Positions 3,100 through 21,859 are shown, counted from the stretch's first letter. The stretch is 32,836 nucleotides of DNA from Candidatus Heimdallarchaeota archaeon (GCA_015523565.1 WAKA01000020.1:1-32836); one strand, 5' to 3'. Made by a program: numbers and translations. The notes: a model not told the origin generated them from the letters alone.

Positions 3100-3159
3100 A
3101 CAAAAAAAGTTCATCCCCTCTCAAAAACTATAATAAGCATATGTATTTAATTGTAATCT

Positions 3160-4326: not shown

Positions 4327-4445
4327 TCCAACTGATTCTTACTGCATGTTAAAAGAAGCAAAAAAAGGGTGCAGACATCGGAAATTGGGGAAATGGAAAA
4401 AAGTTATTTAGGTATAGTAAATTCCGATACACGATACACTAAGAA

Positions 4446-4454
4446 GTTAAATAG
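4446..4454 (+). promoter_or_regulatory. Internal TATA-like box upstream of bcrB
   Basis: aagaaGTTAAATAG, 29 nt before the ATG at 4475, in a 148-bp gap. Confidence 0.5.
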
Positions 4455-4474
4455 TACGATTTCAAGAATAAGCT

Positions 4475-5725
4475 ATGGAAAATATAGTTGCTGTAAAAGA
4501 GGAAGATCTCCAATATGCCGGTGCAGCAAGAAAGATGCAAAGGCAGTTGGTCAGGGATTTTTATAGGCAAGATGTCACGAAACCAGTTGTCTATCTGTTT
4601 GTAGGTGGAAATCCAGCAGAATTATTGCGGGCATTGGGCTTTCAAGTTTACATGCCAGAAATTACCGCTTTGACGATGGCAATCCGTCATCAGTCATTGC
4701 AATATATTCTGAAAGCAGAATCAATTGGCTATGGATTGGATGTATGTGGTTATGTAAAGACAGACATCGGGCTGACGCATTTGTCAGGGGGCGAAACAGA
4801 TATGGGGAAAATCCCCCGACCTGACTTGCTGGTATGCAATTATTCTGGATGCTCAGTCTATGCGAAATGGTGGGAGGCATTGGCGGAATTCTACAAGGTT
4901 CCCCTGATAATGCTGGACATTCCCTATCATAGGTTCAATGATCCGCAAAAGGAAGATTTGGAGTACATAATCGGACAACTTCGGGAAATGGTTGAGAAAA
5001 TCGAGAAGCTTTTTGATCTAACTTTTGACATGAACAGGTTAAAGGATGTGCTTGCATATTCAAGGAAAGCAGAAGATGGGTGGGGGAGGAGTTTTGAAAT
5101 GGCAAAGCATGTGCCTTCTCCAATAGATGCCTACTTTGAATCAATATTCTACATGTTTCCGATAAATGCCTTGAGGGGAACAAAAGAAGCTGCGGAATTC
5201 TATGACCTCTTGAACAGGGAACTTGATGAGAGGGTTAAGCATGGCATTGGTCCCGTAGAAAACGAGGAATTCCGAACCGTCATTGAGGGAGTCCCACCAT
5301 ATCCCGGTTACAGGTCATTCTGGAATATGTTCAAGAAATGGAATGCCGTGTCTGTTGCGGCGACATACCCAAAGGTTGGGGGAATGTTTGATATCCCTGA
5401 GTTAAGGCATGATCCTGCCAAACCTTGGGAAAGTATTGCAAGATACAGTATTTTCAGTTACTGCAATCTTTCTTGGGATTTCCGAAGAGAAACAATCAAG
5501 CGTTATTTGGAGGATTTCAAGGCGGATGCATTGGTGATACATGGCATCAAAAGCTGTAGAAGCTTTACCGCAGGACAGGGAGATCTTAGGGATTATGTGA
5601 TCAATGAATTGGGATATCCCGCCTTATATGTGGAATCAGACCATCAAGACCCACGGTATTGGGCAGAGGCCCAGATTTTGAACAGGGTGGATGCCTTCTT
5701 TGAGGCATTGAGAATGAAGAGGTGA
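4475..5725 (+). CDS. bcrB: Benzoyl-CoA reductase subunit B
   Basis: DVCGYVKTDIG, PDLL..YSGC...KW, PSPIDAYF, RGT, VIEG.P, ATYPKVGG, HGIKSC and ESD..DPRY..AQI.NR match BcrB. Confidence 0.88.
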   Translation: MENIVAVKEEDLQYAGAARKMQRQLVRDFYRQDVTKPVVYLFVGGNPAELLRALGFQVYMPEITALTMAIRHQSLQYILKAESIGYGLDVCGYVKTDIGLTHLSGGETDMGKIPRPDLLVCNYSGCSVYAKWWEALAEFYKVPLIMLDIPYHRFNDPQKEDLEYIIGQLREMVEKIEKLFDLTFDMNRLKDVLAYSRKAEDGWGRSFEMAKHVPSPIDAYFESIFYMFPINALRGTKEAAEFYDLLNRELDERVKHGIGPVENEEFRTVIEGVPPYPGYRSFWNMFKKWNAVSVAATYPKVGGMFDIPELRHDPAKPWESIARYSIFSYCNLSWDFRRETIKRYLEDFKADALVIHGIKSCRSFTAGQGDLRDYVINELGYPALYVESDHQDPRYWAEAQILNRVDAFFEALRMKR

Positions 5726-5731
5726 AAAGAA

Positions 5732-6559
5732 ATGCAAGAGAAATATGTAGCAGGCGTGGATGTGGGAAGCACCACAGCAAAGGCAATTATATTGGACATG
5801 GACAGGAACATAGTTGGCAAGTCATTGCAAAATGTTTCTCCAAAGGTTGCAGAAGATGCAGAGACTGCATTTCTCAAGGCATGCCAAGATGCAGGCATAG
5901 ATCGAGAAAAGGTTGTATTGATCACAGGGACAGGTTATGGAAGATTAAAAGTCAGGTTCGGTCAACTCATCGTAACAGAAATCTCCTGCCATGCAAAAGG
6001 GGCACAATTTATTTTTCCGAAGACAAGGCTGACATTGGATATAGGGGGGCAAGATACAAAAGCAATCAGGCTTGGAGAAAATGGAGAGATAATCGATTTT
6101 AGTATGAACGACAAATGTTCTGCAGGAACTGGACGGTTCTTGGACGTTTGTGCAGATGCTTTAGGATTTTCTGTTTCAGATCTTGGCCCAATTTCTGAAA
6201 AATCCAGAAGACCAGTCAAAATTACAAGCACATGCACTGTTTTTGCCGAAACAGAGGTTTCCAACCAATTGGCAAGGGGCAGAAAACCAGAAGACATTGT
6301 CAATGGTCTCCATTACTCAATTGCGGAAAGATCCATTTCATTGATGCGAAGAGTCGGGATTGTTGATGAAATCACATTTACCGGCGGGGTGTCTCGAAAT
6401 ACTGGAATGGTGCGAGCCCTTGAAGACAAGCTTGGGAGAAAGATCAATGTTTCGCCGTTATCCCAATGGTTTGGAGCAATCGGGGCAGCATTGTTTGCAT
6501 TGGAAGAACTTGAGAAAGGGAGTGATCCAAAATTCATGCCAATGGAGGTGAAACAATGA
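5732..6559 (+). CDS. bcrA: Benzoyl-CoA reductase subunit A (ASKHA ATPase / [4Fe-4S] activator, short form)
   Basis: GVDVGSTTAK, GTGYGR, EISCHAKGA, DIGGQDTK, MNDKCSAGTGRFL, STCTVFA, FTGGV. GAGGTGA SD upstream. Confidence 0.82.
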   Translation: MQEKYVAGVDVGSTTAKAIILDMDRNIVGKSLQNVSPKVAEDAETAFLKACQDAGIDREKVVLITGTGYGRLKVRFGQLIVTEISCHAKGAQFIFPKTRLTLDIGGQDTKAIRLGENGEIIDFSMNDKCSAGTGRFLDVCADALGFSVSDLGPISEKSRRPVKITSTCTVFAETEVSNQLARGRKPEDIVNGLHYSIAERSISLMRRVGIVDEITFTGGVSRNTGMVRALEDKLGRKINVSPLSQWFGAIGAALFALEELEKGSDPKFMPMEVKQ

Positions 6560-7350
6560 TTACAGCAGGCATTGACATAGGCACAGGATCTACAAAAGGA
6601 GTGTTGCTTGAAGACAATGAAAAAATAATTGCAAGAGCCATAAAACCCACAAAAGGTTCCCCCGGAAAGATGGCCACTGAAATTTTCAATGAATTGCTGG
6701 AAACGTCCAAACTTGACAAAGGCGAGGTTGATTATATCGCATCAACGGGATATGGTCGTTATATGATGGAAGAACGCCAAATCCAGATCAGCGATTTGAC
6801 AACCACGGGGAGAGGTGCAAAATTCATCTATAGGGACAAGAATCCCAGCCTTATTCTGGATATAGGGACACAATCCTCTAGAGCCATAAGAGTAGATGAA
6901 CGAGGCAAGATCATCCAGTTCAAGATGAATGAAAGATGCGCCGCGGGAAGTGGAAGATTTATTGAGAGATGTTCACGTTACCTAGTTGTTCCAATGGAAA
7001 AGATTTCTGAGACAGCCATGAAAAGCACAGATCCACAAAAGATTTCCAGTGTCTGTGCAGTGCTTTCAGAAACAGAGATAATTAACCATGTCTCACAAGG
7101 GATTCCCGTTGAGGATATCTTGATGGGGGTTTTCATGAGCATCGCAGACAGGGCAGGAACTCTTTTGAAAAGGGTAAAGCTTGATGCCCCTGTCTTTCTT
7201 GCTGGAGGGCTGGTCCATATGCCTGCAATGAAAAAGGCATTGGACGAGGTACTTGACCAAGAGGTCATATCTGTGCCAGAGGCACATTTTTCAGCGGCAA
7301 TTGGTGCCGCAAGGCTTGGTTATCAAAGACTTCAAAAAATCAAGAAATAG
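6556..7350 (+). CDS. bcrD: Benzoyl-CoA reductase subunit D
   Basis: MITAGIDIGTG, RAIRVDERGK, CAAGSGRF and ISSVCAVLSETEIIN match BcrD. ATGA overlap with bcrA and GGAGGTGA SD. Confidence 0.85.
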   Translation: MITAGIDIGTGSTKGVLLEDNEKIIARAIKPTKGSPGKMATEIFNELLETSKLDKGEVDYIASTGYGRYMMEERQIQISDLTTTGRGAKFIYRDKNPSLILDIGTQSSRAIRVDERGKIIQFKMNERCAAGSGRFIERCSRYLVVPMEKISETAMKSTDPQKISSVCAVLSETEIINHVSQGIPVEDILMGVFMSIADRAGTLLKRVKLDAPVFLAGGLVHMPAMKKALDEVLDQEVISVPEAHFSAAIGAARLGYQRLQKIKK

Positions 7351-7371
7351 AGAAAAGGGGACAAAAACAAC

Positions 7372-8349
7372 ATGAGTGAATACGGATTCAAAGAAAAATT
7401 CAAACCAAAAGATGCTGAGGAATACGATTTCAAGGAAATCATATATGAAAAAGACAGGGACAAGTTTGTCGCCAAGGTCACAATCAATCGCCCACATGTA
7501 TATAATGCATATTCCACAGAAACATTGAGAGAAATGTCACAGGCATTCCTTGATGCCATGTGGGATGATGGGGTCGCCGTTGTGGTGCTTACAGGGGCAG
7601 GTGACAAGGCGTTTTGTACAGGAGGTGATGTGAAAGAATACCAGAGCATCTTCACACAAAAACCAAGAGATTATTACAAATGGATGTCACTATTTGTCGA
7701 GGCACATGACAGGTTCAGGAACATTGGTAAGCCAACAATCGCGAGAATCAACGGAATCGTTGCGGGTGGAGGAAATGAATGGAATATGGCATGCGATCTG
7801 GCTATTGCGGCAGAACATGCCACAATCCGACAAGTAGGGACAAGAGTCGGGTCTGTTGCGGCAGGAGGAGCCACCCAATGGCTCCCCATAATTGTAGGGG
7901 ACAGAAGGGCAAGAGAGATACTGTTTCTCAATGAGCCAATCCCTGCAAGAAAAGCGATGGAATGGGGTCTTGTCAACCAAGTTGTACCTTATGAGAAATT
8001 GGATGAGGCAGTGGATGCAATGGTCGAGAAATTGGTCGAAAAGTTTCCAGAATGCAGCAGATATACAAAAGAACAGGTAAACTTCTGGAAAAATTTTGCT
8101 TGGTATCAAACCATAAATCATGCAAAGGAATGGTTAACGCTTCATTATGCAAACTGGGAACCTTACGAGGGGATGACTGCATTCGTTGAAAAAAGACCGC
8201 CCAATTATAGGATGATTCGGGAAATTGCAAGAGACGGTGGATCCTCTGAGCTTATGTGGGGACCACCATCAAAGACATGCTCTGCATGCGGTGCAAAAGG
8301 ACTCCCCAAGAATTTCAAGCATTGTGGCGTTTGTGGAAAAGAACTATAG
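7372..8349 (+). CDS. oah: Oah-like ring-opening hydrolase (crotonase family) with C-terminal Zn ribbon
   Basis: YNAYST, GDKAFCTGGDVKEY, GGGNE and GSVAAGGATQWLP resemble 6-oxocyclohex-1-ene-1-carbonyl-CoA hydrolase. C-terminal CSAC..CGVC. bcr context. Confidence 0.7.
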   Translation: MSEYGFKEKFKPKDAEEYDFKEIIYEKDRDKFVAKVTINRPHVYNAYSTETLREMSQAFLDAMWDDGVAVVVLTGAGDKAFCTGGDVKEYQSIFTQKPRDYYKWMSLFVEAHDRFRNIGKPTIARINGIVAGGGNEWNMACDLAIAAEHATIRQVGTRVGSVAAGGATQWLPIIVGDRRAREILFLNEPIPARKAMEWGLVNQVVPYEKLDEAVDAMVEKLVEKFPECSRYTKEQVNFWKNFAWYQTINHAKEWLTLHYANWEPYEGMTAFVEKRPPNYRMIREIARDGGSSELMWGPPSKTCSACGAKGLPKNFKHCGVCGKEL

Positions 8350-8361
8350 GTGTAAACAACA

Positions 8362-9942
8362 ATGGCAACCATACTCACCATTGACCAAGTTACAAAAGAC
8401 CTCATCCCAGATGGATCATTCATTGCGATAGGAGGGGTTCATTCACATAATGCTCCAATGGCACTGATCAGGCAGATCATAAGGGAGGGGGTAAAAGACC
8501 TTACAGTATTGGGATCCATCTCAACAGGATTGCCGATTGATTTGCTTGTGGCAACTAAATCAGTCAAAAAAATTCTGGCACCATACGTAGGCATGGAAAT
8601 GTGGGGACTTGCACCCAATTACAGAAAAGCTGTTGAACAGGGAGAGGTGGTGGCTCCTGATGTATGCGAGGCATTCCCAATTTATGGATTAAGAGCCTCG
8701 ATAAATGGCATTCCCTTCCATCCATTCCCGCCCAATGTGCATAAGTCATCAGACATCCCTTCACAATCAGAATATTACAAGAAAGTAACTGACCCGTTTT
8801 CTGGTGAAGAAACCTATGCGATTGCCGCCATACATCCTGACATTGCATTGATCCATGTACAGAATGCAACGGTTTCAGGAGATTGTGAGCATCTTGGATC
8901 TGTTGTATTGGATCGGCTTATGGCAGAAGCATCCAAACTTACGATTGTGACCTGTGACAATTTGGTGAACACAATCGATACAAGAAATGTGACCATTCCA
9001 GGATTTTTGGTCGATTATATCGTCCCCCTCAAGGGTGCGGCTTTCCCAACCTCATCACATGGAATGTATGTCTATGATGAGACCACAATCAAAGGATACT
9101 TGAAAGCTTCAAAAAATCAAGAGGAACTACAAAGGTGGATAGATGGATTCAAAAATTCAAATGAGGAAGAGTACTTGTCCAAGCAGACCCTGACCACGGA
9201 ATTGAGAGGAAAACCAAATACAGGAGAATATACAATTTCAGAGCTTATTGCAACGGTATTTAGTAGGGACATCAAGGATGGAGAATTGGGGATCTGTGGA
9301 GCTGTTGCTGAAATTCCCATGGCCGCCATGAGGTTGGCTGAAAGATTGCATGCCCCCAATTTAAGGTGGATTTCAGGAGGATCTGGTTATATCAATCCAA
9401 GAGGAGTGCTATATCCATCCTCGACGGATTTTGAAATGTCAAGGAATGCCAATGCAAGACTTTCCATGAATGAGGTAATCGCCATGGAAATGACAAAAAT
9501 TGACTTTTTCTTTGCTGGAGGATTACAGATTGATGCAAGAGGCAGTACAAATTTGGGAGGAATACCGTCGGAAAGCGGTTGGAAACTGCGTGGACCAGGA
9601 AGTGTAGGCCTTCCATTCCTGCCTCAAGCTGGAAGAGTGTATCTTTATACCCTTTCACATAACAAGAGGTCACTTGTTGAAAAGGTGGCATATGTTTCAG
9701 GACCAGGAGCCATTGGAGAGGGCGGATCAAAACCGTCACTATTGGTTACAAACCTTTGTGTCTTTAGATGGAAGGGCAGATGGACATTGGAATCCTTGCA
9801 TCCCGGAGTAACCCTTGAAGATGTGGTTGAGAACACAGGATTTGAGTTTGATATTCCAGAAACCGTACAAACAACAAAACCACCAACACAAGAAGAATTA
9901 ACTATTCTTCGAGAAATAGATAAGTTAGGTGTCCTGAAATGA
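8362..9942 (+). CDS. Fused alpha+beta family I CoA-transferase-fold protein (GctAB/IpdAB-like)
   Basis: N-half IPDG..IAIGG...PMALIR..I..G.KDLT (GctA-like). C-half HAPNL, DFFFAGGLQID..G.TN, GPGS, LVTNLCVF, SLHPGVT...V.ENTGF (GctB-like). Confidence 0.85.
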   Translation: MATILTIDQVTKDLIPDGSFIAIGGVHSHNAPMALIRQIIREGVKDLTVLGSISTGLPIDLLVATKSVKKILAPYVGMEMWGLAPNYRKAVEQGEVVAPDVCEAFPIYGLRASINGIPFHPFPPNVHKSSDIPSQSEYYKKVTDPFSGEETYAIAAIHPDIALIHVQNATVSGDCEHLGSVVLDRLMAEASKLTIVTCDNLVNTIDTRNVTIPGFLVDYIVPLKGAAFPTSSHGMYVYDETTIKGYLKASKNQEELQRWIDGFKNSNEEEYLSKQTLTTELRGKPNTGEYTISELIATVFSRDIKDGELGICGAVAEIPMAAMRLAERLHAPNLRWISGGSGYINPRGVLYPSSTDFEMSRNANARLSMNEVIAMEMTKIDFFFAGGLQIDARGSTNLGGIPSESGWKLRGPGSVGLPFLPQAGRVYLYTLSHNKRSLVEKVAYVSGPGAIGEGGSKPSLLVTNLCVFRWKGRWTLESLHPGVTLEDVVENTGFEFDIPETVQTTKPPTQEELTILREIDKLGVLK

Positions 9943-10628
9943 ATGTATTGGTCATTGGTGCATTGGGGGGAATTGGTAAGGCAACTGTAAAAAGACTCCA
10001 GCAGTCAGGATATGAAGTAATCTCAGCAGATATACCTGTAATTGAGGATAAAAATTATATTGCAGTTGATGTTGCTGATTACAACTCAGTTAATCGGCTG
10101 TTTGGGGAATTGGAACATAAGGGGATCAAAATATCAGGGATTGTGAATTTGGCAGGGATTACAAGAGACAGGACATTGTTGAAAATGAACCATGAGGAAT
10201 GGGAAAACGTAATTTCAGTCAACCTTACAGGAAGTTTCAATGTACTTAAGCGGGGGGCGGAACACATGAAGATGCATGGAAAAGGTTCCATTGTCCTGAT
10301 TGGATCCACTGCCGCGTTGAATGGCAATTTTGGACAGACAAACTACAGTGCCTCAAAAGCAGGGATACAAGGTCTTGTGAGATCCGCGAGTAGGGAACTT
10401 GCACGGAATGGCATACGTGTCAATTGTGTCATTCCAGGGTTAATAGAAACGCCAATGTCCGCAAAGATACCAAAGGAAAGATGGGAAACCATTCTTAAGA
10501 TAATTCCGCTTGGAAGGGCAGGCAAACCTGAAGAGGTTGCAAATCTCATCAATTTTTTAATTTCCGACGAATCCTCATATATTACTGGTTCCTCGATGCT
10601 TGTCGACGGCGGATTAAGAATGTCCTGA
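9939..10628 (+). CDS. Short-chain dehydrogenase/reductase (3-oxoacyl-/3-hydroxyacyl-CoA, FabG/PhaB-like)
   Basis: GALGGIG, NLAGITRD, GQTNYSASK, VNCVIPG, YITG...VDGG. ATGA overlap with the upstream gene. Confidence 0.85.
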   Translation: MNVLVIGALGGIGKATVKRLQQSGYEVISADIPVIEDKNYIAVDVADYNSVNRLFGELEHKGIKISGIVNLAGITRDRTLLKMNHEEWENVISVNLTGSFNVLKRGAEHMKMHGKGSIVLIGSTAALNGNFGQTNYSASKAGIQGLVRSASRELARNGIRVNCVIPGLIETPMSAKIPKERWETILKIIPLGRAGKPEEVANLINFLISDESSYITGSSMLVDGGLRMS

Positions 10629-12488
10629 TCATTCATAAAAATCATTGACACCGTTTTTTCGAGCGTAGTGAATGACAGGTAATAGAAGGGTAAAAGGATA
10701 AAACATTTCAAGAGTTTTGTAGAGGTAGCCATCGACAGTTTCCCTAATTTGAAAGAATATTATGAAATCATCGGGATTCAAGCTTGAAGAATTGAAGACA
10801 CTTAAGCCACTGAAAATCAGGAGAACCTGGGTGGTTGAAAAGAATGTGCGATATTGGACAGGAATGGAATAGAATTGATGAACGTCATTCCATCCTGCGT
10901 AGATTAATTTCTCCTCCCCATTTATTGAAAGAATGACGTCAAGACGCCAATTCACGGAAAGCGGTTGATCTAAGGGCAAGACATTTTCGGGGTCACTGAC
11001 ATATTTTACATCGACAATGGAGATTTTGTCATCGTTGAATTGGATGACATCACCAACTTTCCCGTCAACATCTGTAACTTTTGTGGAGTAATGGGAAGCA
11101 AGCATTCCAAGAATAAGAAATAAAAGGAAAAGATGAGGCATGATTCTCATTGTTTTTCGAAAGGTGATTTTTTTGGGGATCGGCGGTACATTCCTCCCAT
11201 GGAACAAAAATCCCAAGAAGACAAGAAAAATGAAATAATAATAACCAAGTTTTGGAGGAGAGACCATAAGTGGGATTCCCACAAAAATGACGAGAACAGA
11301 GAACAAAACCAAGGAATTTTGTGAGAAAGAAAGAGCCAATGTATCTTTCAGGTCACGAAACAATGTCAAGGACAAGGGGAACAATAACAAGGTCAGAACA
11401 ATGAAGTGGTAAAACCCTTTGTTTGGGCTTAACTTTTTCCCAATTACAAAACCATACACTGTTAATGAAAATATGCCTGTTGAGAGAATGATAATGATCA
11501 AAAAGTTGGCCATGAGCCAAACTGAGGCACCCCTATCCTTAAAGGAAAGATCAATGTGATATGTTTTTGGCATATCCAAAAATATTATTGGGATTATTGA
11601 AAAGAGAAAGAGAGTAAGGAATATCCACATTTGAGATGAAGTTGCATAGCTATGCGGATCACGGAGTATTCCGCTTCTGATTATGGCGGTAGAAAGCAGG
11701 ATGGCAGGAAAGGTGAATTGCATTGATTTCAATTGGGTTTGCCATGAATAGCTGGCAAAATGGAATGGCAATATGGAACACATGAATATAAATAGAGTGA
11801 GAATTTCAACAGGGTCCCAAGTCCAATGTCCGCCCCAAAGGACTTCGTAAGACCAAAATGCACCAGATACGATGGCAGACGCGAAAAGAAAGACCATAAA
11901 GGCATTCATGATTTTCAGATTCTTGAATTGGGAATAGGAAACCTCCCTGCCAAAAATCGAATATGAATATAAGAAAAATGCAATAGAATAACCAAAAAAA
12001 GACAATGGCGGATGAATGTCAATATAGAAAGAACGAAGGCTTGGCGGAATGCCCAATCCCATCTCGTATCCAAGAGTCGAATACTCAAAAGGATTCTGAA
12101 AATAAAGCCCAAAAGCGATCATTAAGACAAAGGAAGAGAACAAAAGTTGAGATTTCCGAATTTGTGCCCAAAGGGATTGGATGAATTGAAATGAGACAAG
12201 GATGGTGAACCAAAGGAAAAGACTGCCCGTTGCATTTGACCAGCTTGCAAAAAGTCTTTCAGAACTATCCATTCCCCTTGAAAGAGTATGGGCAACAATT
12301 GCGTATCGAGTGTCTGAATGGATGAACAGGAAAATGAATCCAACAAACAATGACCATGAAAGGAGAGTCAAAAAACCAGATAGCAGAACTGAGAGCCTTT
12401 GATTTATTTTAAGCAACAGGCCAACGATATACAATGCCTGGAATGACAGGATTAAATAGAAAAAAACCATGAGATGCAAAGTTCTCAC
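10629..12488 (-). CDS. ccmF: Cytochrome c maturation heme lyase CcmF
   Basis: W...GSL.LW, NPF, IHPP, WSY..LWGGHWTWDPVE (WWD domain), RSGI...HSYA and a later PH. Multi-TM. Confidence 0.88.
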   Translation of the reverse strand: MRTLHLMVFFYLILSFQALYIVGLLLKINQRLSVLLSGFLTLLSWSLFVGFIFLFIHSDTRYAIVAHTLSRGMDSSERLFASWSNATGSLFLWFTILVSFQFIQSLWAQIRKSQLLFSSFVLMIAFGLYFQNPFEYSTLGYEMGLGIPPSLRSFYIDIHPPLSFFGYSIAFFLYSYSIFGREVSYSQFKNLKIMNAFMVFLFASAIVSGAFWSYEVLWGGHWTWDPVEILTLFIFMCSILPFHFASYSWQTQLKSMQFTFPAILLSTAIIRSGILRDPHSYATSSQMWIFLTLFLFSIIPIIFLDMPKTYHIDLSFKDRGASVWLMANFLIIIILSTGIFSLTVYGFVIGKKLSPNKGFYHFIVLTLLLFPLSLTLFRDLKDTLALSFSQNSLVLFSVLVIFVGIPLMVSPPKLGYYYFIFLVFLGFLFHGRNVPPIPKKITFRKTMRIMPHLFLLFLILGMLASHYSTKVTDVDGKVGDVIQFNDDKISIVDVKYVSDPENVLPLDQPLSVNWRLDVILSINGEEKLIYAGWNDVHQFYSIPVQYRTFFSTTQVLLIFSGLSVFNSSSLNPDDFIIFFQIRETVDGYLYKTLEMFYPFTLLLPVIHYARKNGVNDFYE

Positions 12489-13947
12489 CCAAGCTTTTCA
12501 ACTGTTTCAATTATTTTCTTTCGCATTTCTTCTGTACTCAGCGGGTCATAAAATTCAAATTTTTCAAAAATCATGTTTGTGCCACGTGGCATGATTATCA
12601 ATTCATTTACGGAGTACGTATCAAATTCAAATGTGAGAATTGCCTCATATTTATCTCCAAGAATACGGAGTGACCCCATCTGTGGGTTTTCATGAGGAAT
12701 AAGAACCAAATCCGTTATTGGAACCCCTAAAACGTCCTCAAATTCTTCTTTCTTGGAAATTGGATCTTGAATTAATTCTGGAAGTAGAGCAGATAGCTTT
12801 CCATCAAAATAAAGCAGGTCATCTTCTTTTCTGATGGCATAGATGTTTACCGAGAAGGCGAGAATCAAACCGATAAAGAGTATGGATGAGATAATCTCAA
12901 ATGTTTCTTCAAGCCAGACGGGAATGAATTTGGTATCCAAAATTGAGAGACTTGAAATTTGGTTGAGTGCCAAGAGGGCATCGTGAATTGTATCCAATCC
13001 TGATTCTTCAGATGAGCTACTCTCTACTAAGGCACGATTGATTTTAGAGCCCAATTCTTGAATGGCAGGACCATACAAATCAGTAATTTCTTGAGCTGTC
13101 AAACCCAATCGTTTAAGGGAGATTATTGCATATGCAGTGGCTTCCATCGTAGGTTGTGAAACAGCATTTGGTTTAAAGCCTTTTTCACCAGTATATTGTG
13201 AATCAATCCATGAAACCAATGCATTTTTGTTGAACCCATAACTTTCATAAAGAGTGATACTTGTATTCAACTTAAAAATAATGGAAGAGACAAAATAAGC
13301 ATTTTTCATGGTTGGCAATGAGCCTTCACCAAGCTCAATGATCCCACCATCAGAGTTTTGCATGGAATTGATGGCAATTGCGATTTTGGTGCGGTTGATC
13401 CCCAAGAAAAATTGAGTGGTGTTTGTGTAAAGCTTTTCAAGTGAAGAGATGCCGTAGAAACTCTCCTCTAGTTCACCGATATATTGATGGAATGCATCTG
13501 TTTCCCCATATTCCCTAAAAAGGCTATCACTGGTTTGCAATGAAAGTATTGCGGAAATTATTTTGTGCGGTTATATTGATCAATTGCATTGAATTTGGAC
13601 AAAAGAGCCAATGCCGCCCATGTTGTATGAAGAGACGGTTCACCATCCCTATCCAAGAAAAGATTTGTTTGATTGTCGTATCTGGATTTAATGAAATTTA
13701 AAATAGGGGCAGAATTAAAGCCAGAAAGCCTATTGAGGATGTCCAATGAACTGACAGCATAAAAAGAGCTCAAAATTGAAGGAGTGGAGGATCCTTTGTG
13801 AGTAACAAAAACACCATTTTGGTTAAATGAGTTTATCTCATCGACAATGACATCTTGCTTGCTTGGTTCAAATGATATTATGAGACCATAAGCTAAAATG
13901 TCAAGGATTGTCAAGGCAACAAACATATATTTATACACAATCGCCAT
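12485..13947 (-). pseudogene. Prenyltransferase/squalene-cyclase-repeat membrane protein split by a 1-nt frameshift near 13561-13564 (ORFs 13558..13947 and 12485..13540)
   Basis: Both ORFs carry the same alpha/alpha repeats (QNSDGG, PTMEATAYAI..L, PSLHTTWAAL..L). One extra A in ACAAAATAA joins them as ...YNRTK-IISAILSLQTSD..., giving about 487 aa. Confidence 0.7.
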
Positions 13948-13982
13948 TTAATACAGGCTGTATTTGATGAATTATTTTTTCA

Positions 13983-16781
13983 TCAATCAGATTTCTCTTC
14001 CCAAGTCATTTCTGCAATACTCTGGTAGTTAAATGGTGAAGAATCCCGAGGCATAGATTGTGGCAGGAAATGACCAGGTTCACTTTCTTTTTTCTCCAAT
14101 TTATTCAGGAGATGATGACGAGCCCTTAGAATGTCGTCAGCCTGTACAACAGCAATGTCATTGATTTCAAGCCATTCATACAGGGCAGTTATGGCATCTA
14201 GTTCAGTCTGATCACCAAAAAACATTACAATTGCGTCAGGATGCACCCCATTTTCAACAAGAACGGTTGCCAAGATTTTCGGGACTTCACCAGGTTCCCT
14301 GCCTCTCCTATTCCAATCCTCCTTAAGGAAATACCGGTCATAATGTCCAGCCACGATTTCCGCGGCATGCTTGATGGTGCTGTCAGGTCTATCACCAGGC
14401 ATTCCAAAGACGATTGCCTTACGTCCGATTCCATGCTGATCCTTGTGAAATCCTTCAACAAGCATTATCTGAGATTTTAGGGCGTCTGGGTTGTGGCCAT
14501 AGTCGATAATGACTCTGGCACCCTTTACAAATTCAATATTCATCCTTCCAGGGGTTAGTGAATAATTTGTGGTGAATGAAGAGAGTCCAGCCCGAATATC
14601 CTCTATCGAGACAAAAGGTATTGTTGCAGCCACAACAAACATGGCATTGACAATGTTGAAGACTGCATGACCGTTATGGCAGGCAGGGATTGACTTCACA
14701 TGCAAAATAGAGGTCTGGGACTTATTCTGGATCAATTGAATCATGCCGTTTGGTGTAATTGTAACGGCGTCACCACCAGATGCAACATGATCCAGTAATT
14801 TTGGGTTTTTATAGTTCAAGGAGACCAAGACGGGCTTGCCACGAATTCTGTCGATCTGATCCATGACAAGGGGATCGTCGGCATTTATGACACCATATCC
14901 GACATCTTTTTTGACTTGATCCAAAACAACCCCCTTGACTTCTGCGAGATCCTCCAATGTTTCAACACCCCCCAATCCCAAGTGATCCTCAGAAATATTC
15001 AGCAAGCAACCGACATCACAATAGTCCCATCCCAACCCCTCCCTGAGAATGCCACCACGAGCAGTTTCCAATACTGCAAAATCAACAGTCGGATCTTTCA
15101 GCACTGCCTTTGCACTCCATGGACCCGTACAATCCCCGACGTATTGCAATTCACCATCAATGTAAATCCCGTCTGTGGTGGTAAGCCCTACTTTTCGACC
15201 AGAAAGTTTCAGCACATGTGCAATCCACCTTGACACTGTTGTTTTGCCATTTGTGCCAGTTACCGCGATCAGGGGGATGCGACCGTCATTCCCATCAGGG
15301 AACAGCATGTCTACGATCGGTTTTGCCACATTTCTGTTGGTTCCTTCAGTGGGCTCCAAATGCATTCTCAAACCAGGTGCCGCGTTTACCTCTATGATAA
15401 CACCCCGTTGCGAAAGGATTGGAATAGAAATGTCTTCTGCGATGATATCAACACCTGCGATATCCAATCCGATTGTTTTGACGGCTCGTTCAGCCAATCG
15501 GATGTTGTCATAGTGAATGATATCGGATACATCAACTGCAGTCCCACCAGTTGAAAGATTGGCAGTTGCCTTTAGTTGCACAAAACGACCTTTTTCAGGC
15601 ACATCATCAAGGGTCAATCCTTGACTTTCCAGCAGGTCAAGGGAAGATTGATCCAACGTAATCCTTGTAAGTACCTTTTCATGACCAATTCCACGTCTAG
15701 GGTCTTCATTCACGATCCTCACCAACTCATCAACAGTGTGGATGCCATCACCCACAACATGGGCAGGAATTCGTTGAGCCGCAGCAATAAATTGCCCATT
15801 CACAACCAAGACACGATAATCATTGCCTTGGACATACTGTTCCACAATTACATAGCGAGAATACTCTTTAGCCTTTTCAAACCCTTTCCTTAGATCATTC
15901 TCGTCTTCTATGTTAAGTGTCACCCCCCTCCCATGAGAAACATCAGAGGGTTTGGTCACCACAGGATAGCCAATCCGGTTCGCCTCTTCCAATGCCCCCT
16001 CAAAAGTTGTGACCTCTGCACCGCGTGGAACCGGAATGCCGACATCATATAGCATTTGAAGGGTCAGTTCCTTCTCTTGAGCGATTTCAGTTGCAATATA
16101 GGATGTCAAGCTACTAGTGGATGCCCAAATGCGTTTTTGTTTGTATCCCCATCCAAATTGCACCAAGCTCCATTTCTTCTTAAGCCGAATCGAGGGGATT
16201 CCCCGGTTTTCAGCCTCCCGTACAATTGCACCAGTGGTTGGTCCATAGGCATATTCTTCCGCAATACGGATAACTTTTGCCAAGGAAAGTCCCCAATCAA
16301 ATTCAGGGTATCGGGTTGGATCAATGCAATAATTTACAACCTGTTGAGCCAAATCAGTGGAAGCAAGTGCAGTCTCCTCATTCTTGTATTCGTAAACCAC
16401 GTTATACACACTTTCTTTACCTGTTCTGCCCAATCGATTGCGGATCTGCCTTGTTTTGCCGAATGAAACGGCAATTCCAGCAAGATTCTGTATCTCTATG
16501 GCAACATGCTCAAAAATATGCCCCATCCATGTCCCCTCATCCTCTGTGAGCCTACGGACAAAACCTCCCTTGACCCCTAAACTACAGGTATGTTCTGCCA
16601 ATGTGGGGACAAGATCTAAAAGCCGTTCATTGAAGCCATCTAGTTTCATGGAAGGATAGTCTTCCAAATCACCAATGTCAACGACCACATGCATTGCTTT
16701 TCTGTAATGGTAGATATTGGGACCGCGATAGACCCGTTTCGACACAATCTCCAAATAAAGGTCGGGTTGCATTGTATTCAT
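13983..16781 (-). CDS. cphA: Cyanophycin synthetase (CphA1)
   Basis: N domain GPNIY and EHTCS...GHIFEH. ATP-grasp GPTT..IV..A..RGIP, VTKP....HGRGV, TANLSTGG, EVNAAPGLRMH. Mur-ligase VTGTNGKTT, ETARGGILREGL, DHLG, PGRMN, DYGHNP. ATG at 16781 (ORF track begins at TTG 16784). Confidence 0.96.
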   Translation of the reverse strand: MNTMQPDLYLEIVSKRVYRGPNIYHYRKAMHVVVDIGDLEDYPSMKLDGFNERLLDLVPTLAEHTCSLGVKGGFVRRLTEDEGTWMGHIFEHVAIEIQNLAGIAVSFGKTRQIRNRLGRTGKESVYNVVYEYKNEETALASTDLAQQVVNYCIDPTRYPEFDWGLSLAKVIRIAEEYAYGPTTGAIVREAENRGIPSIRLKKKWSLVQFGWGYKQKRIWASTSSLTSYIATEIAQEKELTLQMLYDVGIPVPRGAEVTTFEGALEEANRIGYPVVTKPSDVSHGRGVTLNIEDENDLRKGFEKAKEYSRYVIVEQYVQGNDYRVLVVNGQFIAAAQRIPAHVVGDGIHTVDELVRIVNEDPRRGIGHEKVLTRITLDQSSLDLLESQGLTLDDVPEKGRFVQLKATANLSTGGTAVDVSDIIHYDNIRLAERAVKTIGLDIAGVDIIAEDISIPILSQRGVIIEVNAAPGLRMHLEPTEGTNRNVAKPIVDMLFPDGNDGRIPLIAVTGTNGKTTVSRWIAHVLKLSGRKVGLTTTDGIYIDGELQYVGDCTGPWSAKAVLKDPTVDFAVLETARGGILREGLGWDYCDVGCLLNISEDHLGLGGVETLEDLAEVKGVVLDQVKKDVGYGVINADDPLVMDQIDRIRGKPVLVSLNYKNPKLLDHVASGGDAVTITPNGMIQLIQNKSQTSILHVKSIPACHNGHAVFNIVNAMFVVAATIPFVSIEDIRAGLSSFTTNYSLTPGRMNIEFVKGARVIIDYGHNPDALKSQIMLVEGFHKDQHGIGRKAIVFGMPGDRPDSTIKHAAEIVAGHYDRYFLKEDWNRRGREPGEVPKILATVLVENGVHPDAIVMFFGDQTELDAITALYEWLEINDIAVVQADDILRARHHLLNKLEKKESEPGHFLPQSMPRDSSPFNYQSIAEMTWEEKSD

Positions 16782-16792
16782 CAAAATTAGAA

Positions 16793-16812
16793 ATGTTAAA
16801 ACCTTTTAACAT
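16793..16812. promoter_or_regulatory. Perfect 9-bp inverted repeat overlapping the cphA TATA-like box
   Basis: ATGTTAAAA-cc-TTTTAACAT; minus-strand TTAAAAGG starts 28 nt before the cphA ATG. Confidence 0.5.
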
Positions 16813-17117
16813 AGAAAATGGCGAAATGTAAAGAGAAGGTCAAAATCGAGGAGGGGGAATCATTCTTGTTTATAGGATGAGATTTTATTGGATCAAATGC
16901 CAAACAGAAAAAAATGGATAGTATCAAGAATGGAAATATGAAAAAATGAGATTCAACCAATTCTTTTGATAGCTATTTTATTTCACTGTCGGATGCACCA
17001 TCCAGTTTTTGTGCAAAAACGATTTAGTCACTAAAATTGAATAGTTTTAGATTTTTGACGAGACAGTTTCACGATTCCCCATGGTTCAACCAGTATTTGA
17101 TTGGCAGTTCCATATCA

Positions 17118-18038
17118 TTATCTTATCCACATGGAAATTGCCACACCCATATACATCCAGAGATATGCTATTGCCATAAACATTGAAGCGAACTTGAAAA
17201 GTTTGAAAGTTGTTATATGATTGGGGTTTTGGAAGTTTTGCACTGAAAGTCGGATCAATACAATGCCGAACAGGATCAGCGGAAGTTGAGCCAACATATG
17301 GAGCCTTAAGGCATATCCTGTGGCAATGAGAAGAAAACCATCCAAGAATGATGCAATGGTCACAACATATCTTGTCTCCCTGATACCTGCGACAACAGGC
17401 CACATTGGCACCCCTGCATTTCGATAACCCTCCAGATTTTCAGGGAGGGTTGCAAGAGTCAAAATGTGGAGAGGGATCCATAAAAGGATGAAAAGGAGAA
17501 ACAAGACTGCCACCAAGTCGATTTTTCCGATGACCGCAGTCCTTCCCGCCATTGCAGGCAATCCGCCAGCGATTCCTCCAAATACAATAGACCATTTAGT
17601 CCTTCTTTTTAGCCACAATGAGTAGACAACAACATCAAAAAACAATCCTAGGGCAATAATGACTGCGGTCAGCATATTCAGGAAGTATGCAGCTCCAAAT
17701 ACACCACTAACGGAAAAGATGAAACCATGGTTCCGAACAGTGCTTGCACTTATCTTGCCAGAGGGTAAAGGGCGGTTCTGTGTCCTAGGCATTATTGCAT
17801 CGATATCCCTGTCGATGTACATGTTCAGAAGAGTGGATCCAGACACGGCAAAAAACATAGATATGGTGAGCAGGATCAAGTCTTTCAAAACAGGATAAGG
17901 ATGAGCGCTGATAAGATATGCAAAAACGGTTGTGTAGATAAGTAAAGAGGTTTGCTTTCCCTTTATCAATTCGCCATACATAGAAAAGGGAATAAAATTT
18001 GGATGCCGGTCTGCAGTTGTTAAACCATGTTCACTCAT
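17118..18038 (-). CDS. ctaB: Protoheme IX farnesyltransferase (heme O synthase, UbiA family)
   Basis: NMYIDRDID..M.RT..RPLPSG, YSLWLKRRT, GGIAGG.P..G, W.P.H...LA, Y..AGVPM. ATG at 18038 overlaps the upstream stop. Confidence 0.93.
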   Translation of the reverse strand: MSEHGLTTADRHPNFIPFSMYGELIKGKQTSLLIYTTVFAYLISAHPYPVLKDLILLTISMFFAVSGSTLLNMYIDRDIDAIMPRTQNRPLPSGKISASTVRNHGFIFSVSGVFGAAYFLNMLTAVIIALGLFFDVVVYSLWLKRRTKWSIVFGGIAGGLPAMAGRTAVIGKIDLVAVLFLLFILLWIPLHILTLATLPENLEGYRNAGVPMWPVVAGIRETRYVVTIASFLDGFLLIATGYALRLHMLAQLPLILFGIVLIRLSVQNFQNPNHITTFKLFKFASMFMAIAYLWMYMGVAISMWIR

Positions 18039-19470
18039 TTCCAACTACTCCTGTTTCAAATTCATCTGTAAGGAAATGCTTGATAAGATAATATATGCCA
18101 AAGATACCTGTAGCCATGAACATGAACATGACTCCAATATCAATGAGCAAAAACAAGGTCAACCCTTTGTCATCTGGGGAACGCAACATGTAAAGCGTTG
18201 CAAAACCGAAACCCAGGATTGACCCTATCAGGGATGACCAACCAATGAAATCGTGTATTTTTCCTTTGATATCCAAGTATTTGACAGCAAGCATCAGAAC
18301 CATAATTGCACAGATTGTAGAAATGACATGCCAATGTCCAGTATTGAAAGTCCGTTCAATTTCAGTGTATTCATCCGTACGGAATTTTTCAAGGTGTATT
18401 GCAACGTATACGCCAGGAAAAGTGCTGGTCACATTGACCCAAATAAGTTGGAAATACAAGGTGAAATCAACAGGATCCTTGAAAACAGCCATGATTTTGC
18501 TCAACAAAGGACTGGAATCATAAGAAACCCCAAGTTTCCTACGGGAAATGTTGACAATGCCATAGATGGCAGTAATCATCCCTACAAGAAGAAGAAACAT
18601 TGCCCCTACATTTATAACGACGTGGGCCTTTTCCCATGGGGTAATCACCAACCATGCGCCTATACTTATGATAACAACCCCAATATTGTAGAGTATATGG
18701 CACACTTTCAGCAATTTCCCCTTCATTCCAGAGTATTTCAGGGTAAGCAAAAGAACTGCCGCGGCCAAAAGGGCAACCATGATATGCAGATGTGATACCA
18801 CCATTTCCTTGAGAGAATATCCAACATTACCACCAGGCGCCCTGACAACATCTTCAGCAAGAACGACTTCGAAATTGGTTCCAATGTTTGACCCCACCCA
18901 TGCACCAATAATAGAAGATATCAATATCGCAAGTATTGTCAAAGACATGGAAAAGTATTCCAAATTATATTGCCTCCAATATGGTGCATCCTTTTTTTTT
19001 GTGGGAAAGGTCGTGCTCGGCCAGATCCCGATAAGCAAGAGTATTGCCCCATAAAAACTTAGGGAAAGCCCAAAAATAAAGACCCCATGAGGCACTTGGG
19101 AATCAATTGGAGAATACCCATAAACCATTCCAAAAAAGCCAGTGAGCAAAGCCCCAATTGTGATTGCCCATTTTGCCTGTATTTCTAAAGTGCCGCGGAT
19201 TTCATACCAATCAAGAACAAAATAAGAGACAGCCGCAAGAAATGGGACTGCCAATGAATGATAAAGCATGATGATCCGTCCAGCCCTTGTTCTAGGCGAA
19301 TTGTCAAGATCAACAGGAATCAACGGTTTGCCGAATATTTCGACTACAGGTTTTGAAAAAGTACTCAAAAACACTATAATTGCAAGCTCAAAAAGGATAA
19401 TCAAAGCGATTAGTCCCCTATAACTAGTAAAAAACTGCTTTATTTTCCCAATGAAAGTTATTGTAATCAC
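18031..19470 (-). CDS. 12-TM His-rich membrane protein, possible divergent heme-copper oxidase subunit I fold
   Basis: Twelve hydrophobic segments with YH (TM2), SHLH (TM6) and GHWH (TM10). Start probably GTG 19470 or nearby; the ORF-track start at 19515 overlaps the upstream gene. The CDS is solid, the fold assignment is tentative. Confidence 0.6.
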   Translation of the reverse strand: MITITFIGKIKQFFTSYRGLIALIILFELAIIVFLSTFSKPVVEIFGKPLIPVDLDNSPRTRAGRIIMLYHSLAVPFLAAVSYFVLDWYEIRGTLEIQAKWAITIGALLTGFFGMVYGYSPIDSQVPHGVFIFGLSLSFYGAILLLIGIWPSTTFPTKKKDAPYWRQYNLEYFSMSLTILAILISSIIGAWVGSNIGTNFEVVLAEDVVRAPGGNVGYSLKEMVVSHLHIMVALLAAAVLLLTLKYSGMKGKLLKVCHILYNIGVVIISIGAWLVITPWEKAHVVINVGAMFLLLVGMITAIYGIVNISRRKLGVSYDSSPLLSKIMAVFKDPVDFTLYFQLIWVNVTSTFPGVYVAIHLEKFRTDEYTEIERTFNTGHWHVISTICAIMVLMLAVKYLDIKGKIHDFIGWSSLIGSILGFGFATLYMLRSPDDKGLTLFLLIDIGVMFMFMATGIFGIYYLIKHFLTDEFETGVVGNE

Positions 19471-19480
19471 CTCTTGCCTC

Positions 19481-20137
19481 TTATTTGACCAGCATGTCCG
19501 AAATGAAAGGCACATTTATTCTCCATTTTTCAGGGAATACAATTCCAAGAGTGAAGAAAGCACCTACAATGAGCAATAGCGGGGGAAGCACAAGAAAGAT
19601 CTGTCCTTCAGTCAAGATGGGACTTCCGATGGCTACAAAAGCCAAAAGTGCACCTCCAAAACTAATCAGGACCCCACCTATGCTCATAAAGTATGCGTTG
19701 GCTTCTTTTGAAACAATGGGAAGAAGGATAATCAAAATGCCTGAGGGGATGTGCATAGCCATGATAAGTCCAGAGGTCGAGGTGTCACCAGCCAGTCTTA
19801 CCCATGCAGTGATAACCATCATTATAAGTTCATACAGCAAGAACACCCACCCATATAATGGGTTGTCTTCAAACACCGCAAAAAGAAGCCCAACAGCCAT
19901 GCCGATAGGGATTAATGCGGCAACGACCGGCACAAGCTCTGTTTTAAGGATATCGAAGTCAAAAAGGATTATCAGTACACCCGAAACAAAGAGCACAATG
20001 TATGAAATGCCCCAAAACAGGTGATACTTGTTCTTCGAGGCAACATATTCCTTTAAAAGGAAAATGCCCACATAGACGGCTACAATGCCCGTCAGCAACA
20101 GGAATATGATTGAAACTAAGTTGTCCAACATGGTCAT
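19481..20137 (-). CDS. Hypothetical 7-TM membrane protein
   Basis: 218 aa, about 7 hydrophobic helices, first gene of the apparent operon with ctaB; TATA box 28 nt upstream. Confidence 0.8.
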   Translation of the reverse strand: MTMLDNLVSIIFLLLTGIVAVYVGIFLLKEYVASKNKYHLFWGISYIVLFVSGVLIILFDFDILKTELVPVVAALIPIGMAVGLLFAVFEDNPLYGWVFLLYELIMMVITAWVRLAGDTSTSGLIMAMHIPSGILIILLPIVSKEANAYFMSIGGVLISFGGALLAFVAIGSPILTEGQIFLVLPPLLLIVGAFFTLGIVFPEKWRINVPFISDMLVK

Positions 20138-20157
20138 AATAAATATAGATTGTAAAA

Positions 20158-20187
20158 TATTTATAGGTTAGGTGAGCAATTGCTCAC
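20158..20187 (-). promoter_or_regulatory. TATA box plus upstream perfect 16-bp palindrome (candidate operator)
   Basis: Minus-strand TATAAATA at 20165-20158; GTGAGCAATTGCTCAC at 20172-20187. Confidence 0.65.
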
Positions 20188-20356
20188 AAAAAATCGAAAA
20201 TTAATAGATAAATGACAAACAATATCTGTATTGCCATGTGAAGAAGCAGTGTCTTTAGAACAAGTGCATTGACCGACAATGTCCCTTCAGAGGATTATTG
20301 GGAAAAGCACACCAGATTCCTCATGCATTCTGGATTAAAAATTGCAGGAAGAAATT

Positions 20357-20791
20357 TCAATCCTTTTTGATTTCCAAATCAACAAAATCAAGGCAATTAT
20401 GTATGCAACTTTTGTTTTTGCAATTTTCAAAGCTTGTATTCCCATAATTGATGGCCCAAGTCTTCATGGCCTCCAACACATCCTTGAGAGCAATACCCCG
20501 GTCTGTCAATGCATAACCAACCCGTTCATTATCAAGTCGGATACGTGCAACCAAATCATTTTTTTCAAGTTCGTTCAGCTTGTCCTTGAGCACCCTTGAA
20601 GAAATTTCAGTTGAATAGTTCCCAGAGAGCTTTCGTTTAAGATCTGTGAATGTTAGGTACGGTTTCGCCAGTAATTCAGCAAAAATAAAAACATTCCATT
20701 TTTTCCCAAGCACCTCAAGTGTATGGACAACACTGCATTTAAAGTCCACGGCACCCATCAAGCACAGATTTAAACTATACTTTTTAAACAT
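20357..20791 (-). CDS. HxlR-family winged-helix transcriptional regulator
   Basis: CSVVHTLEVLGKKW, F.DL...L, IS.RVL...L.ELE...LV.R, Y.LT.RG..L..VL..M..W. True start may be the second Met (20755). Confidence 0.88.
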   Translation of the reverse strand: MFKKYSLNLCLMGAVDFKCSVVHTLEVLGKKWNVFIFAELLAKPYLTFTDLKRKLSGNYSTEISSRVLKDKLNELEKNDLVARIRLDNERVGYALTDRGIALKDVLEAMKTWAINYGNTSFENCKNKSCIHNCLDFVDLEIKKD

Positions 20792-20971
20792 TTTCGAGGG
20801 AATTTTCAGTCATCCTTACCAAATAAATGAAAGAAACAATGAACATTGCTGAAAAAGCACATGAATTTGTCAACGTGAAATTGCAACAAATGGATTGAAT
20901 ACCCCATTATTATAATTCGGGGATTTTCACCTCTAAATATAAGAAGGATGGATACCGTAAGGGGTTAGAGG

Positions 20972-21859
20972 ATGGTCGGGCACACATCATATTTGGCCAT
21001 AGGAGGGGCAATGAGACTCCATGAAAAAAACCCCTTGGTAAGAACCTTCATAGACGGGGCTGGCGGAAAGGAAAGCGTGATCACAATATTGCCTACTGCG
21101 TCAGATTTTGCTGAGGAAGTGGGATCACTTTATTATAAGCTGTTCTGCAAGCTTTCAGATGATGTGGAGTATTTCATCATTGACCATAGGCATCAGGCAG
21201 AAGACCCCAAACTGTTGGAAAGAATAGACAGGACAACAGGGCTGTTTTTTACTGGAGGAAACCAACTTCGCATAACCAGCCTGCTGGGCGGATCAAAACT
21301 CCAGTACAGGATAAACAGTGCGAGAAAGAGAGGGGTGTTTATCGCAGGAACCTCTGCCGGCGCATCCGCCATGAGCTCCACAATGATCGCAGGAGGCAAA
21401 TCAGATGCCATGTTCAAGGGGAGTGTGGAATTGAGTCCGGGATTGGGTTTCGTTGACAACGCAGTCATTGATTCACACTTCATCAAACGGGGCAGGATAA
21501 CCCGGTTGCTGAATGTAGTCAGCCTCAATCCAGGAATATTGGGATTGGGACTGTCTGAAGACACAGGGATCTTGATGAAAGAGGGGAGCTCCATGATGCG
21601 TGTGATAGGGAGCAGGCAAATTGTCATAGTAGATGGCAGAAGTATATCCCATACGAACATAGCGTCAATTGAGGACCATAAGCCCTTTAGTGTGACAGAT
21701 GTCAGAGTCCATGTCCTCAGCCACGACTATGGCTACGATCTGCAAACCCATGAACTGTTCATTCCAGACATCATTCCCGAACTACCGGATTTCAAGGAAG
21801 AGGAAATAGCAGACCTCCCGTATTTTCCGCTTAAGAAACTTGAAAATAGAGATTGGTAA
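20972..21859 (+). CDS. cphB: Cyanophycinase (peptidase S51)
   Basis: AIGGA, PTAS, FFTGGNQLRI, GTSAGA (catalytic Ser), IDSHF..RGR..RL (His), GLSEDT (Glu). Confidence 0.93.
   Translation: MVGHTSYLAIGGAMRLHEKNPLVRTFIDGAGGKESVITILPTASDFAEEVGSLYYKLFCKLSDDVEYFIIDHRHQAEDPKLLERIDRTTGLFFTGGNQLRITSLLGGSKLQYRINSARKRGVFIAGTSAGASAMSSTMIAGGKSDAMFKGSVELSPGLGFVDNAVIDSHFIKRGRITRLLNVVSLNPGILGLGLSEDTGILMKEGSSMMRVIGSRQIVIVDGRSISHTNIASIEDHKPFSVTDVRVHVLSHDYGYDLQTHELFIPDIIPELPDFKEEEIADLPYFPLKKLENRDW

Follow-up and report, generated by a model that had tools for sequence, protein, structure and literature searches.

The 32,836-bp contig analysed here (Candidatus Heimdallarchaeota archaeon, GCA_015523565.1 WAKA01000020.1:1-32836; "the window" refers to this whole stretch of DNA) encodes two enzymes of cyanophycin metabolism, a cyanophycin synthetase 1 (CphA1, gene cphA1 or simply cphA; 13983..16784, minus strand) and a cyanophycinase (CphB; 20972..21859, plus strand). 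We consider it likely, with a probability of roughly 0.8, that the pair provides a Heimdall-group archaeon with a native and selectively maintained pathway for intracellular cyanophycin turnover. This reading draws on the identity of the two genes and their intact catalytic residues, on the archaeal location of the contig, and on the clade structure, strict co-occurrence and purifying selection that both genes display.

In the proposed pathway, CphA1 would convert Asp and Arg to multi-L-arginyl-poly-L-aspartate, with ATP used at the active sites of its G and M domains, and the HxxEH site of its N domain may cut short primers, which would make the enzyme primer-independent. CphB would hydrolyse the cyanophycin to beta-Asp-Arg dipeptides, and these would be split by a housekeeping isoaspartyl peptidase of the IaaA type. 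The polymer would presumably function as a reserve of nitrogen, carbon and energy. The pair was probably taken from bacteria long ago, since it belongs to Heimdall-specific clades of both enzymes, and its later history would be either inheritance with frequent losses or exchange among Heimdall lineages.

The synthetase

The window protein is a cyanophycin synthetase 1 by architecture, score and residues, and polymer synthesis is predicted on these grounds. It scores 1072.8 bits against the equivalog model TIGR02068 (cut-off 850) and 1050.5 bits against NF010623 (cut-off 877). All three domains described in an earlier, sequence-only reading of this DNA are present in the Pfam assignments: the N domain (PF18921, residues 33-153), the ATP-grasp G domain (RimK/ATP-grasp, 235-339) and the Mur-ligase M domain (Mur_ligase_M, 508-719; Mur_ligase_C, 746-836). 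The protein has 933 residues if counted from the TTG at 16784 and 929 if counted from the ATG at 16772; the ATG is more likely the true start, because the database copy of the protein (P0002) has 929 residues and the orthologue in the same-genus genome G011 starts at the equivalent codon.

A well-characterized reference is SuCphA1 from Synechocystis sp. UTEX2470 (7LG5, 7TXV; PMC9262961), which shares the N-G-M architecture; the 7LG5 sequence aligns with the window protein over its full length (729 bits). Mutations in SuCphA1 have defined a primer-generating site in the N domain (H57, C59, R70, H79, E82 and H83) and catalytic residues in the G domain (H267) and the M domain (D585/H586) (Sharon et al., PMC9262961), and every one of these residues is found in the window protein. 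H284 corresponds to H267 of the G domain, and D600/H601 to D585/H586 of the M domain, where the P-loop TGTNGKT (509-515) is likewise conserved. In the N domain, C67, H89, E92 and H93 occupy the positions of C59, H79, E82 and H83, while H65 and the Arg of a "VRR" sequence match H57 and R70. This putative primer-generating metallopeptidase site (16506..16586, minus strand) has the form C-x21-HxxEH, two residues longer than the Cx19 of SuCphA1 as the sequence-only reading had described, with the two-residue insert placed after Su K72. The window protein also differs from SuCphA1 in having a C-terminal tail approximately 50 residues longer, and in its archaeal host. Among CphA1s in general, the Cx19HxxEH site is found in 83%, and is not obligatory for membership of the family.

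The cyanophycinase and a candidate for the last degradative step

CphB is a cyanophycinase of 295 residues, a serine peptidase of family S51, and scores 221.2 bits against the equivalog model TIGR02069 (cut-off 126.6) and 70 bits against PF03575. Alignments to solved cyanophycinases give 171.7 bits for 7UQV and 149.8 bits for 3EN0 (the Synechocystis sp. PCC 6803 enzyme, also 7UQW). The Ser/His/Glu triad, which the earlier reading had called intact, is indeed so: S128 (within GTSAGA), H169 and E196 align with the triads of 3EN0 and 7UQV, and the window protein shares with these enzymes the S51 fold family and the three arginines that follow the catalytic His. Both the triad and these arginines (R173, R175 and R178) are invariant or nearly so among 123 relatives. 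For the Synechocystis enzyme, Law and colleagues (2009) reportedly assigned substrate binding to Q101, D172, Q173, R178, R180 and R183. In the window protein, five of these positions are conserved (Q98, D167, R173, R175 and R178), and the Gln173 position is occupied by Ser168. The protein further differs from the Synechocystis and 7UQV enzymes by Asn97, where GGDQ has Asp, and by a tail of about 35 residues at its C-terminus.

For the third step, a search elsewhere in the genome finds an isoaspartyl peptidase of the IaaA type on another contig (C91:24152-25051; PF01112, 326.8 bits), the sole one in the genome. It keeps the autoprocessing Gly-Thr, and scores 224 bits against human ASRGL1 and 210 bits against E. 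coli IaaA. The genome has no IadA above cut-off, and no CphZ of the AstE/AspA type. Many bacteria complete the breakdown of cyanophycin with promiscuous isoaspartyl dipeptidases (Sharon et al. 2023, PMC10206079), and by analogy with these it is plausible that the IaaA on C91 cleaves beta-Asp-Arg and catalyses the last catabolic step. Its role would not be a dedicated one, since 11 of 12 genomes of the family have the enzyme, with or without cph genes.

An Asgard genome and an archaeal contig

The window is the entire contig C20 of a metagenome-assembled genome (MAG; G000), which comprises 3.57 Mb in 233 contigs and is ~90% complete and ~2% contaminated. The genome is that of an Asgard archaeon, because the bin contains a homologue of the ESCRT-I subunit VPS28 (45.5 bits; none of 14 control prokaryote genomes has a match) and a true actin (455.8 bits). 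The contig itself is archaeal, for two reasons. First, a haem O synthase encoded between cphA and cphB (17118-18044, minus strand), and unrelated to cyanophycin, has only Asgard relatives where these are named: among its best 120 relatives in a set of 5.8 billion proteins, every organism-labelled one is Asgard (Heimdallarchaeota, Hodarchaeales, Kariarchaeaceae, Thorarchaeota or Promethearchaeota, on contigs of up to 4.9 Mb). Second, a 55-kb contig of the same-genus genome G011 (C14) is colinear with the window on both flanks of the cph pair. Paralogues of an open reading frame (ORF) at 225-1133 on seven other contigs of the bin are a further line of evidence that the window belongs to it; in tetranucleotide composition, too, the window is unremarkable for the bin, ranking 68th among 114 contigs in distance from the centroid. 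The suggestion in the sequence-only reading of an archaeal, possibly Asgard, genome is thus borne out.

The CphA1 relatives that are 63-79% identical carry the NCBI labels Heimdallarchaeota, Kariarchaeaceae or LC_2, apart from one with an evidently loose "Methanobacteriota" label. The contigs that encode them reach 222 kb, 348 kb (this one labelled Heimdallarchaeota) and 1.13 Mb, and all three of these also carry matching CphB relatives. The family is most likely Kariarchaeaceae, an assignment that rests on the NCBI labels of the clade members rather than on a marker tree. An rRNA search of the MAG gave no small-subunit match, and atlas look-ups of two unannotated ORFs returned only look-alike clusters dominated by bacteria, which are not informative on taxonomy.

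Two Heimdall-specific clades under long purifying selection

We built two CphA1 trees. The first combined 80 bacterial loci, taken from named genomes in a pattern scan of GTDB, with the family's five sequences, which formed a clade with full support and a long stem; every motif-bearing bacterium had the Cx19 spacing. The picture suggested by this tree, of a family clade outside all bacteria with a clade-specific Cx21 spacing, was overturned by a larger protein search; it was incomplete because the pattern scan had missed Cx21-type bacteria as well as the Hodarchaeota and LC_3 sequences.

The second tree, with 133 sequences, contains a 26-row clade with a Shimodaira-Hasegawa-like approximate likelihood ratio test (SH-aLRT) support of 100 and a stem of 0.23 substitutions per site, whose 12 named members are all of the Heimdall group. 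It comprises 21 sequences of the Kariarchaeaceae type (among them those of LC_2 and of the window), plus a Hodarchaeota group (Cx19) and LC_3 (Cx20), and within it the branching follows genus and family; the bacterial sister of the clade is not resolved in this tree. Bacterial CphA1 relatives are at most 51% identical among the 5.8 billion proteins. The CphB tree gives a corresponding 38-row clade (support 99, stem 0.42) in which the only labels are Heimdall or Kariarchaeaceae, and identity outside this clade does not exceed 47% (bacteria and Thermoplasmatota).

The Cx21 spacing, which the sequence-only reading had singled out, is a frequent variant rather than something new to archaea, because 37 of the 100 next database relatives, including Thermoanaerobaculia MAGs, have both this spacing and the accompanying TEDEGTW insert. 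These bacterial Cx21-type CphA1s (e.g., P0031, P0051 and P0097) resemble the window protein in the insert and in length (~920 residues), but are only 47-49% identical to it and fall in a separate, well-supported bacterial clade; the common insert therefore need not mean direct ancestry.

Between genera, the proportion of synonymous differences (pS) is ~0.8 for cphA and cphB, i.e., saturated, while the proportion of nonsynonymous differences (pN) is 0.15-0.35. A dN/dS ratio is not computable with synonymous sites saturated, but the combination of saturated pS and low pN means that purifying selection has acted on both genes for a long time. The statement in the sequence-only reading that the archaeon "has acquired" cyanophycin storage is therefore not supported in the sense of a recent import.

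Co-occurrence among Asgard genomes is strict: of 400 genomes sampled from the phylum, 11 have cphA, and exactly the same 11 have cphB. Three of the four MAGs of the same genus have cph orthologues. The pair is an old but accessory trait rather than a core one, and its history may have been one early acquisition followed by many losses, or transfer between lineages of the Heimdall group.

Gene order and upstream elements

Although cphA and cphB form a pair, they do not form an operon. They point in divergent directions, and the 4.2 kb that separates them holds four unrelated genes, all on the minus strand: the haem O synthase, two unannotated ORFs (18031-19515 and 19481-20137) and an HxlR regulator (20357-20791). 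In G011 this block (17118..20791) is missing between the orthologues, and cphB and cphA are divergent and 122 bp apart. The order of genes around the pair differs among G000, G011, G009 and G003, and the pair is convergent in G003. In the same-genus genome G009 (locus L027, G009:C172) a 322-residue Mur-ligase-like ORF (5776-6744), 31% identical to the CphA M domain, lies between cphA and cphB. A DNA-level search of another same-genus genome, G010, for the window flanks matched almost nothing, and so gave no empty site for comparison.

A small contig of G000 (C171, locus L129, 2.4 kb) is an alternative assembly path that joins the window within 13880-14192. It shares 269 bp with the 3' end of cphA (97% identity), continues into a 2.1-kb insert and rejoins the window at 13929-13880. 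The insert, located just past the cphA stop codon, has a 139-residue ORF and encodes a 546-residue protein whose C-terminal part carries a double zinc ribbon; it is a strain-level insertion polymorphism.

TATA-like boxes had been proposed upstream of both genes, and can be located precisely. For cphA, the element TTAAAAGGTTTTAA (16796..16809, minus strand) spans -37 to -24 relative to the ATG at 16772, with the hexamers TTAAAA at -37 and TTTTAA at -29. The G011 orthologue has a like arrangement (TATAAAAGTTTTAT at -37 to -24). For cphB, ATATAA (20937..20942, plus strand) is at -35 from the start codon and is followed by a Shine-Dalgarno-like AGGGG (20960-20964, plus strand). Across ~2,000 long ORFs of the genome, TATA-like hexamers are most frequent between -32 and -27 relative to the start codon, at 3-4 times background. 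Such a pattern would be expected if archaeal promoters drive leaderless or short-leader mRNAs, and the cphA element coincides with this peak. These upstream elements are consistent with native expression signals, as the earlier reading had it, but are weak evidence alone, because a hexamer of this kind occurs between -45 and -22 in ~24% of genes versus 14% in a control window. The sharpness of the peak implies many leaderless mRNAs in this genome, and Shine-Dalgarno-like tetramers are enriched at -16 to -5 genome-wide (27% versus 12%).

Points against the proposed pathway, and other explanations

Several observations weigh against a native, maintained turnover pathway. Biochemical or microscopic evidence for cyanophycin exists for no archaeon. 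The genes of the window and of its graph neighbours C2 and C227 include no universal archaeal marker; the two neighbours carry only metabolic and chemotaxis genes, which are not diagnostic. cphA and cphB are at the 94th and 98th percentiles of the genome in GC content, and cphB is at the 2nd percentile in codon usage, an outlier status that agrees poorly with a very long residence. In this genome cphA and cphB stand apart and are not co-transcribed. The trees come from quick searches under LG+G4 with SH-aLRT support only, and many clade members are without a name. Distribution is patchy: cphA is present in 6 of 12 genomes and 4 of 6 genera of the family, and in none of 71 other genomes of the class. 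Finally, the same-genus genome G010, which is near-closed (10 contigs), has neither cphA nor cphB.

The composition of the genes, their absence from G010 and from the 71 other genomes of the class, the variable gene order and the insertion polymorphism at the cphA 3' end would all suit a pair that was imported recently, whether bacteria or a different Heimdall lineage was the source, and that is perhaps transient cargo with little physiological role. We regard this as unlikely. Both trees recover the genus within the family clade, and the stems that separate these clades from bacteria are 0.23-0.42 substitutions per site; between genera, synonymous sites are saturated while amino-acid change is low; and the genes that flank the pair are colinear between G000 and G011.

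The product might alternatively differ from canonical Arg/Asp cyanophycin, for example by including another basic amino acid, or CphB might serve chiefly to consume cyanophycin that bacterial neighbours release. A sequence by itself cannot give the product, and the CphB clade has two substitutions of possible relevance here: Ser at the Gln173 position (Synechocystis numbering) in 36 of 38 members of the Heimdall clade (33 of 85 among the other relatives), and the frequent occurrence of Asn where GGDQ has Asp. For the Culexarchaeia, scavenging of cyanophycin by CphB alone has been proposed (PMC9723716). Nonetheless, both versions are very improbable in our view. The catalytic residues of the G and M domains are conserved, as are the three substrate-binding arginines of CphB, and Ser or Thr is found at the Gln173 position in 48 of the 85 other relatives as well. 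No signal peptide is visible at the CphB N-terminus and, in Asgard genomes, CphB always co-occurs with CphA; together these argue for internal turnover.

That the window is a mis-binned or chimeric bacterial fragment, with cph genes that are not archaeal, has next to no likelihood: the enzymes belong to typically bacterial families, both genes are GC-rich and atypical in codon usage for the bin, and the source is a MAG of 233 contigs with some estimated contamination and no universal archaeal marker on this contig, but the Asgard affinity of the haem O synthase, orthologues in most same-genus MAGs and in 4 of 6 family genera with a tree that follows taxonomy, the gap between bacterial (at most 51%) and Heimdall-labelled (63-79%) CphA1 identities, orthologues on contigs of 222 kb to 1.13 Mb, the typical tetranucleotide profile and an archaeal-type promoter element at the genome's preferred position all speak against it.

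A native turnover pathway can also be framed in a stronger form, in which CphA1 and CphB were acquired once, before the split of Kariarchaeaceae and Hodarchaeales, and were kept as a working cyanophycin reserve, so that cells would have visible granules. We hold this to be possible but clearly less likely than not.

Comparison with known archaeal systems

The sequence-only reading knew of no characterised archaeal producer, but cyanophycin genes in an archaeon are not new. Heimdall LC_2 and LC_3 were reported in 2018 to encode cyanophycin synthesis and degradation (Bulzu et al. 2018, bioRxiv 10.1101/385732), where the genes are listed in a metabolic reconstruction only, without analysis, and the LC_2 proteins are already named as such by NCBI. 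The window pair is a further member of this reported case. The LC_2 proteins are orthologues and fall inside the same clades as those of the window (63% identity for CphA1 and 52% for CphB), and LC_2 CphA1 also has the Cx21 spacing. LC_2 and LC_3 differ from the window in genus; the LC_2 genes are on separate contigs (32.7 and 60.6 kb), and LC_3 CphA1 is a deeper branch (48% identical, Cx20). What the present locus adds is the recognition of Heimdall-specific clades for both enzymes, their strict co-occurrence, their restriction to a single family within the class, and the correction concerning Cx21.

The other two Asgard families with the genes, f25 and f31, also carry cphA and cphB in archaeal chromosomes, the f31 pair on a 416-kb contig. 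Their CphAs differ from that of the window in being only ~40% identical, in having no N-domain HxxEH, in being encoded in operons (cphA-cphB or cphA-cphA'-cphB) and in falling outside the Heimdall clade. The cphA-cphA'-cphB arrangement occurs in an Asgard family other than that of the window, at the loci L030 (G387:C34, 149 kb) and L031 (G335:C4, 417 kb). Here cphA' is a divergent second synthetase, 28-29% identical to the window CphA1, and neither copy has the N-domain HxxEH.

Other genes of the window

In this genome only, the neighbours of cphA are haem/cytochrome-related genes (10629-13947 and 17118-20137, both minus strand). The set comprises a CcmF-like protein, the haem O synthase, two ORFs with weak matches to prenyltransferase toroids, and a 494-residue ORF whose atlas neighbours include clusters resembling cytochrome oxidase subunit I. 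Farther away, an eight-gene cluster (2065-10628, plus strand) resembles anaerobic benzoyl-CoA dearomatisation, with all members below equivalog cut-offs. It consists of a Had-like dehydrogenase, BcrC-like and BcrB-like subunits, two activase-type ATPases, an Oah/BadI-like crotonase, a CoA-transferase and a short-chain dehydrogenase/reductase, and is conserved in G011:C14 at 72-75% nucleotide identity. The ORF at 225-1133 (minus strand, 302 residues) has no Pfam or NCBIfam match, and its atlas features point to Uma2-type endonucleases (0.94). It belongs to a lineage-expanded family: its paralogues on the other G000 contigs are 52-62% identical, and there are many copies in G009 and G011.

Implications

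The biochemical literature treats cyanophycin as a bacterial polymer; in a 2023 bioinformatic survey, the word "archaea" is found solely in the reference list. The presence of the genes is already published and annotated, and the locus therefore adds mainly a cleaner evolutionary picture and a defined candidate for expression. If the pathway works, it would offer polymer production a CphA1 that is distinct both thermally and in its phylogenetic position. The physiology of the prokaryotes most closely related to eukaryotes, which are mostly uncultured and poorly known in their cell contents, would likewise gain a reserve of nitrogen and energy. If, in addition, a single acquisition preceded the split of Kariarchaeaceae and Hodarchaeales, a bacterial-type granule for nitrogen and carbon storage would be an old trait of the archaea nearest to eukaryotes.

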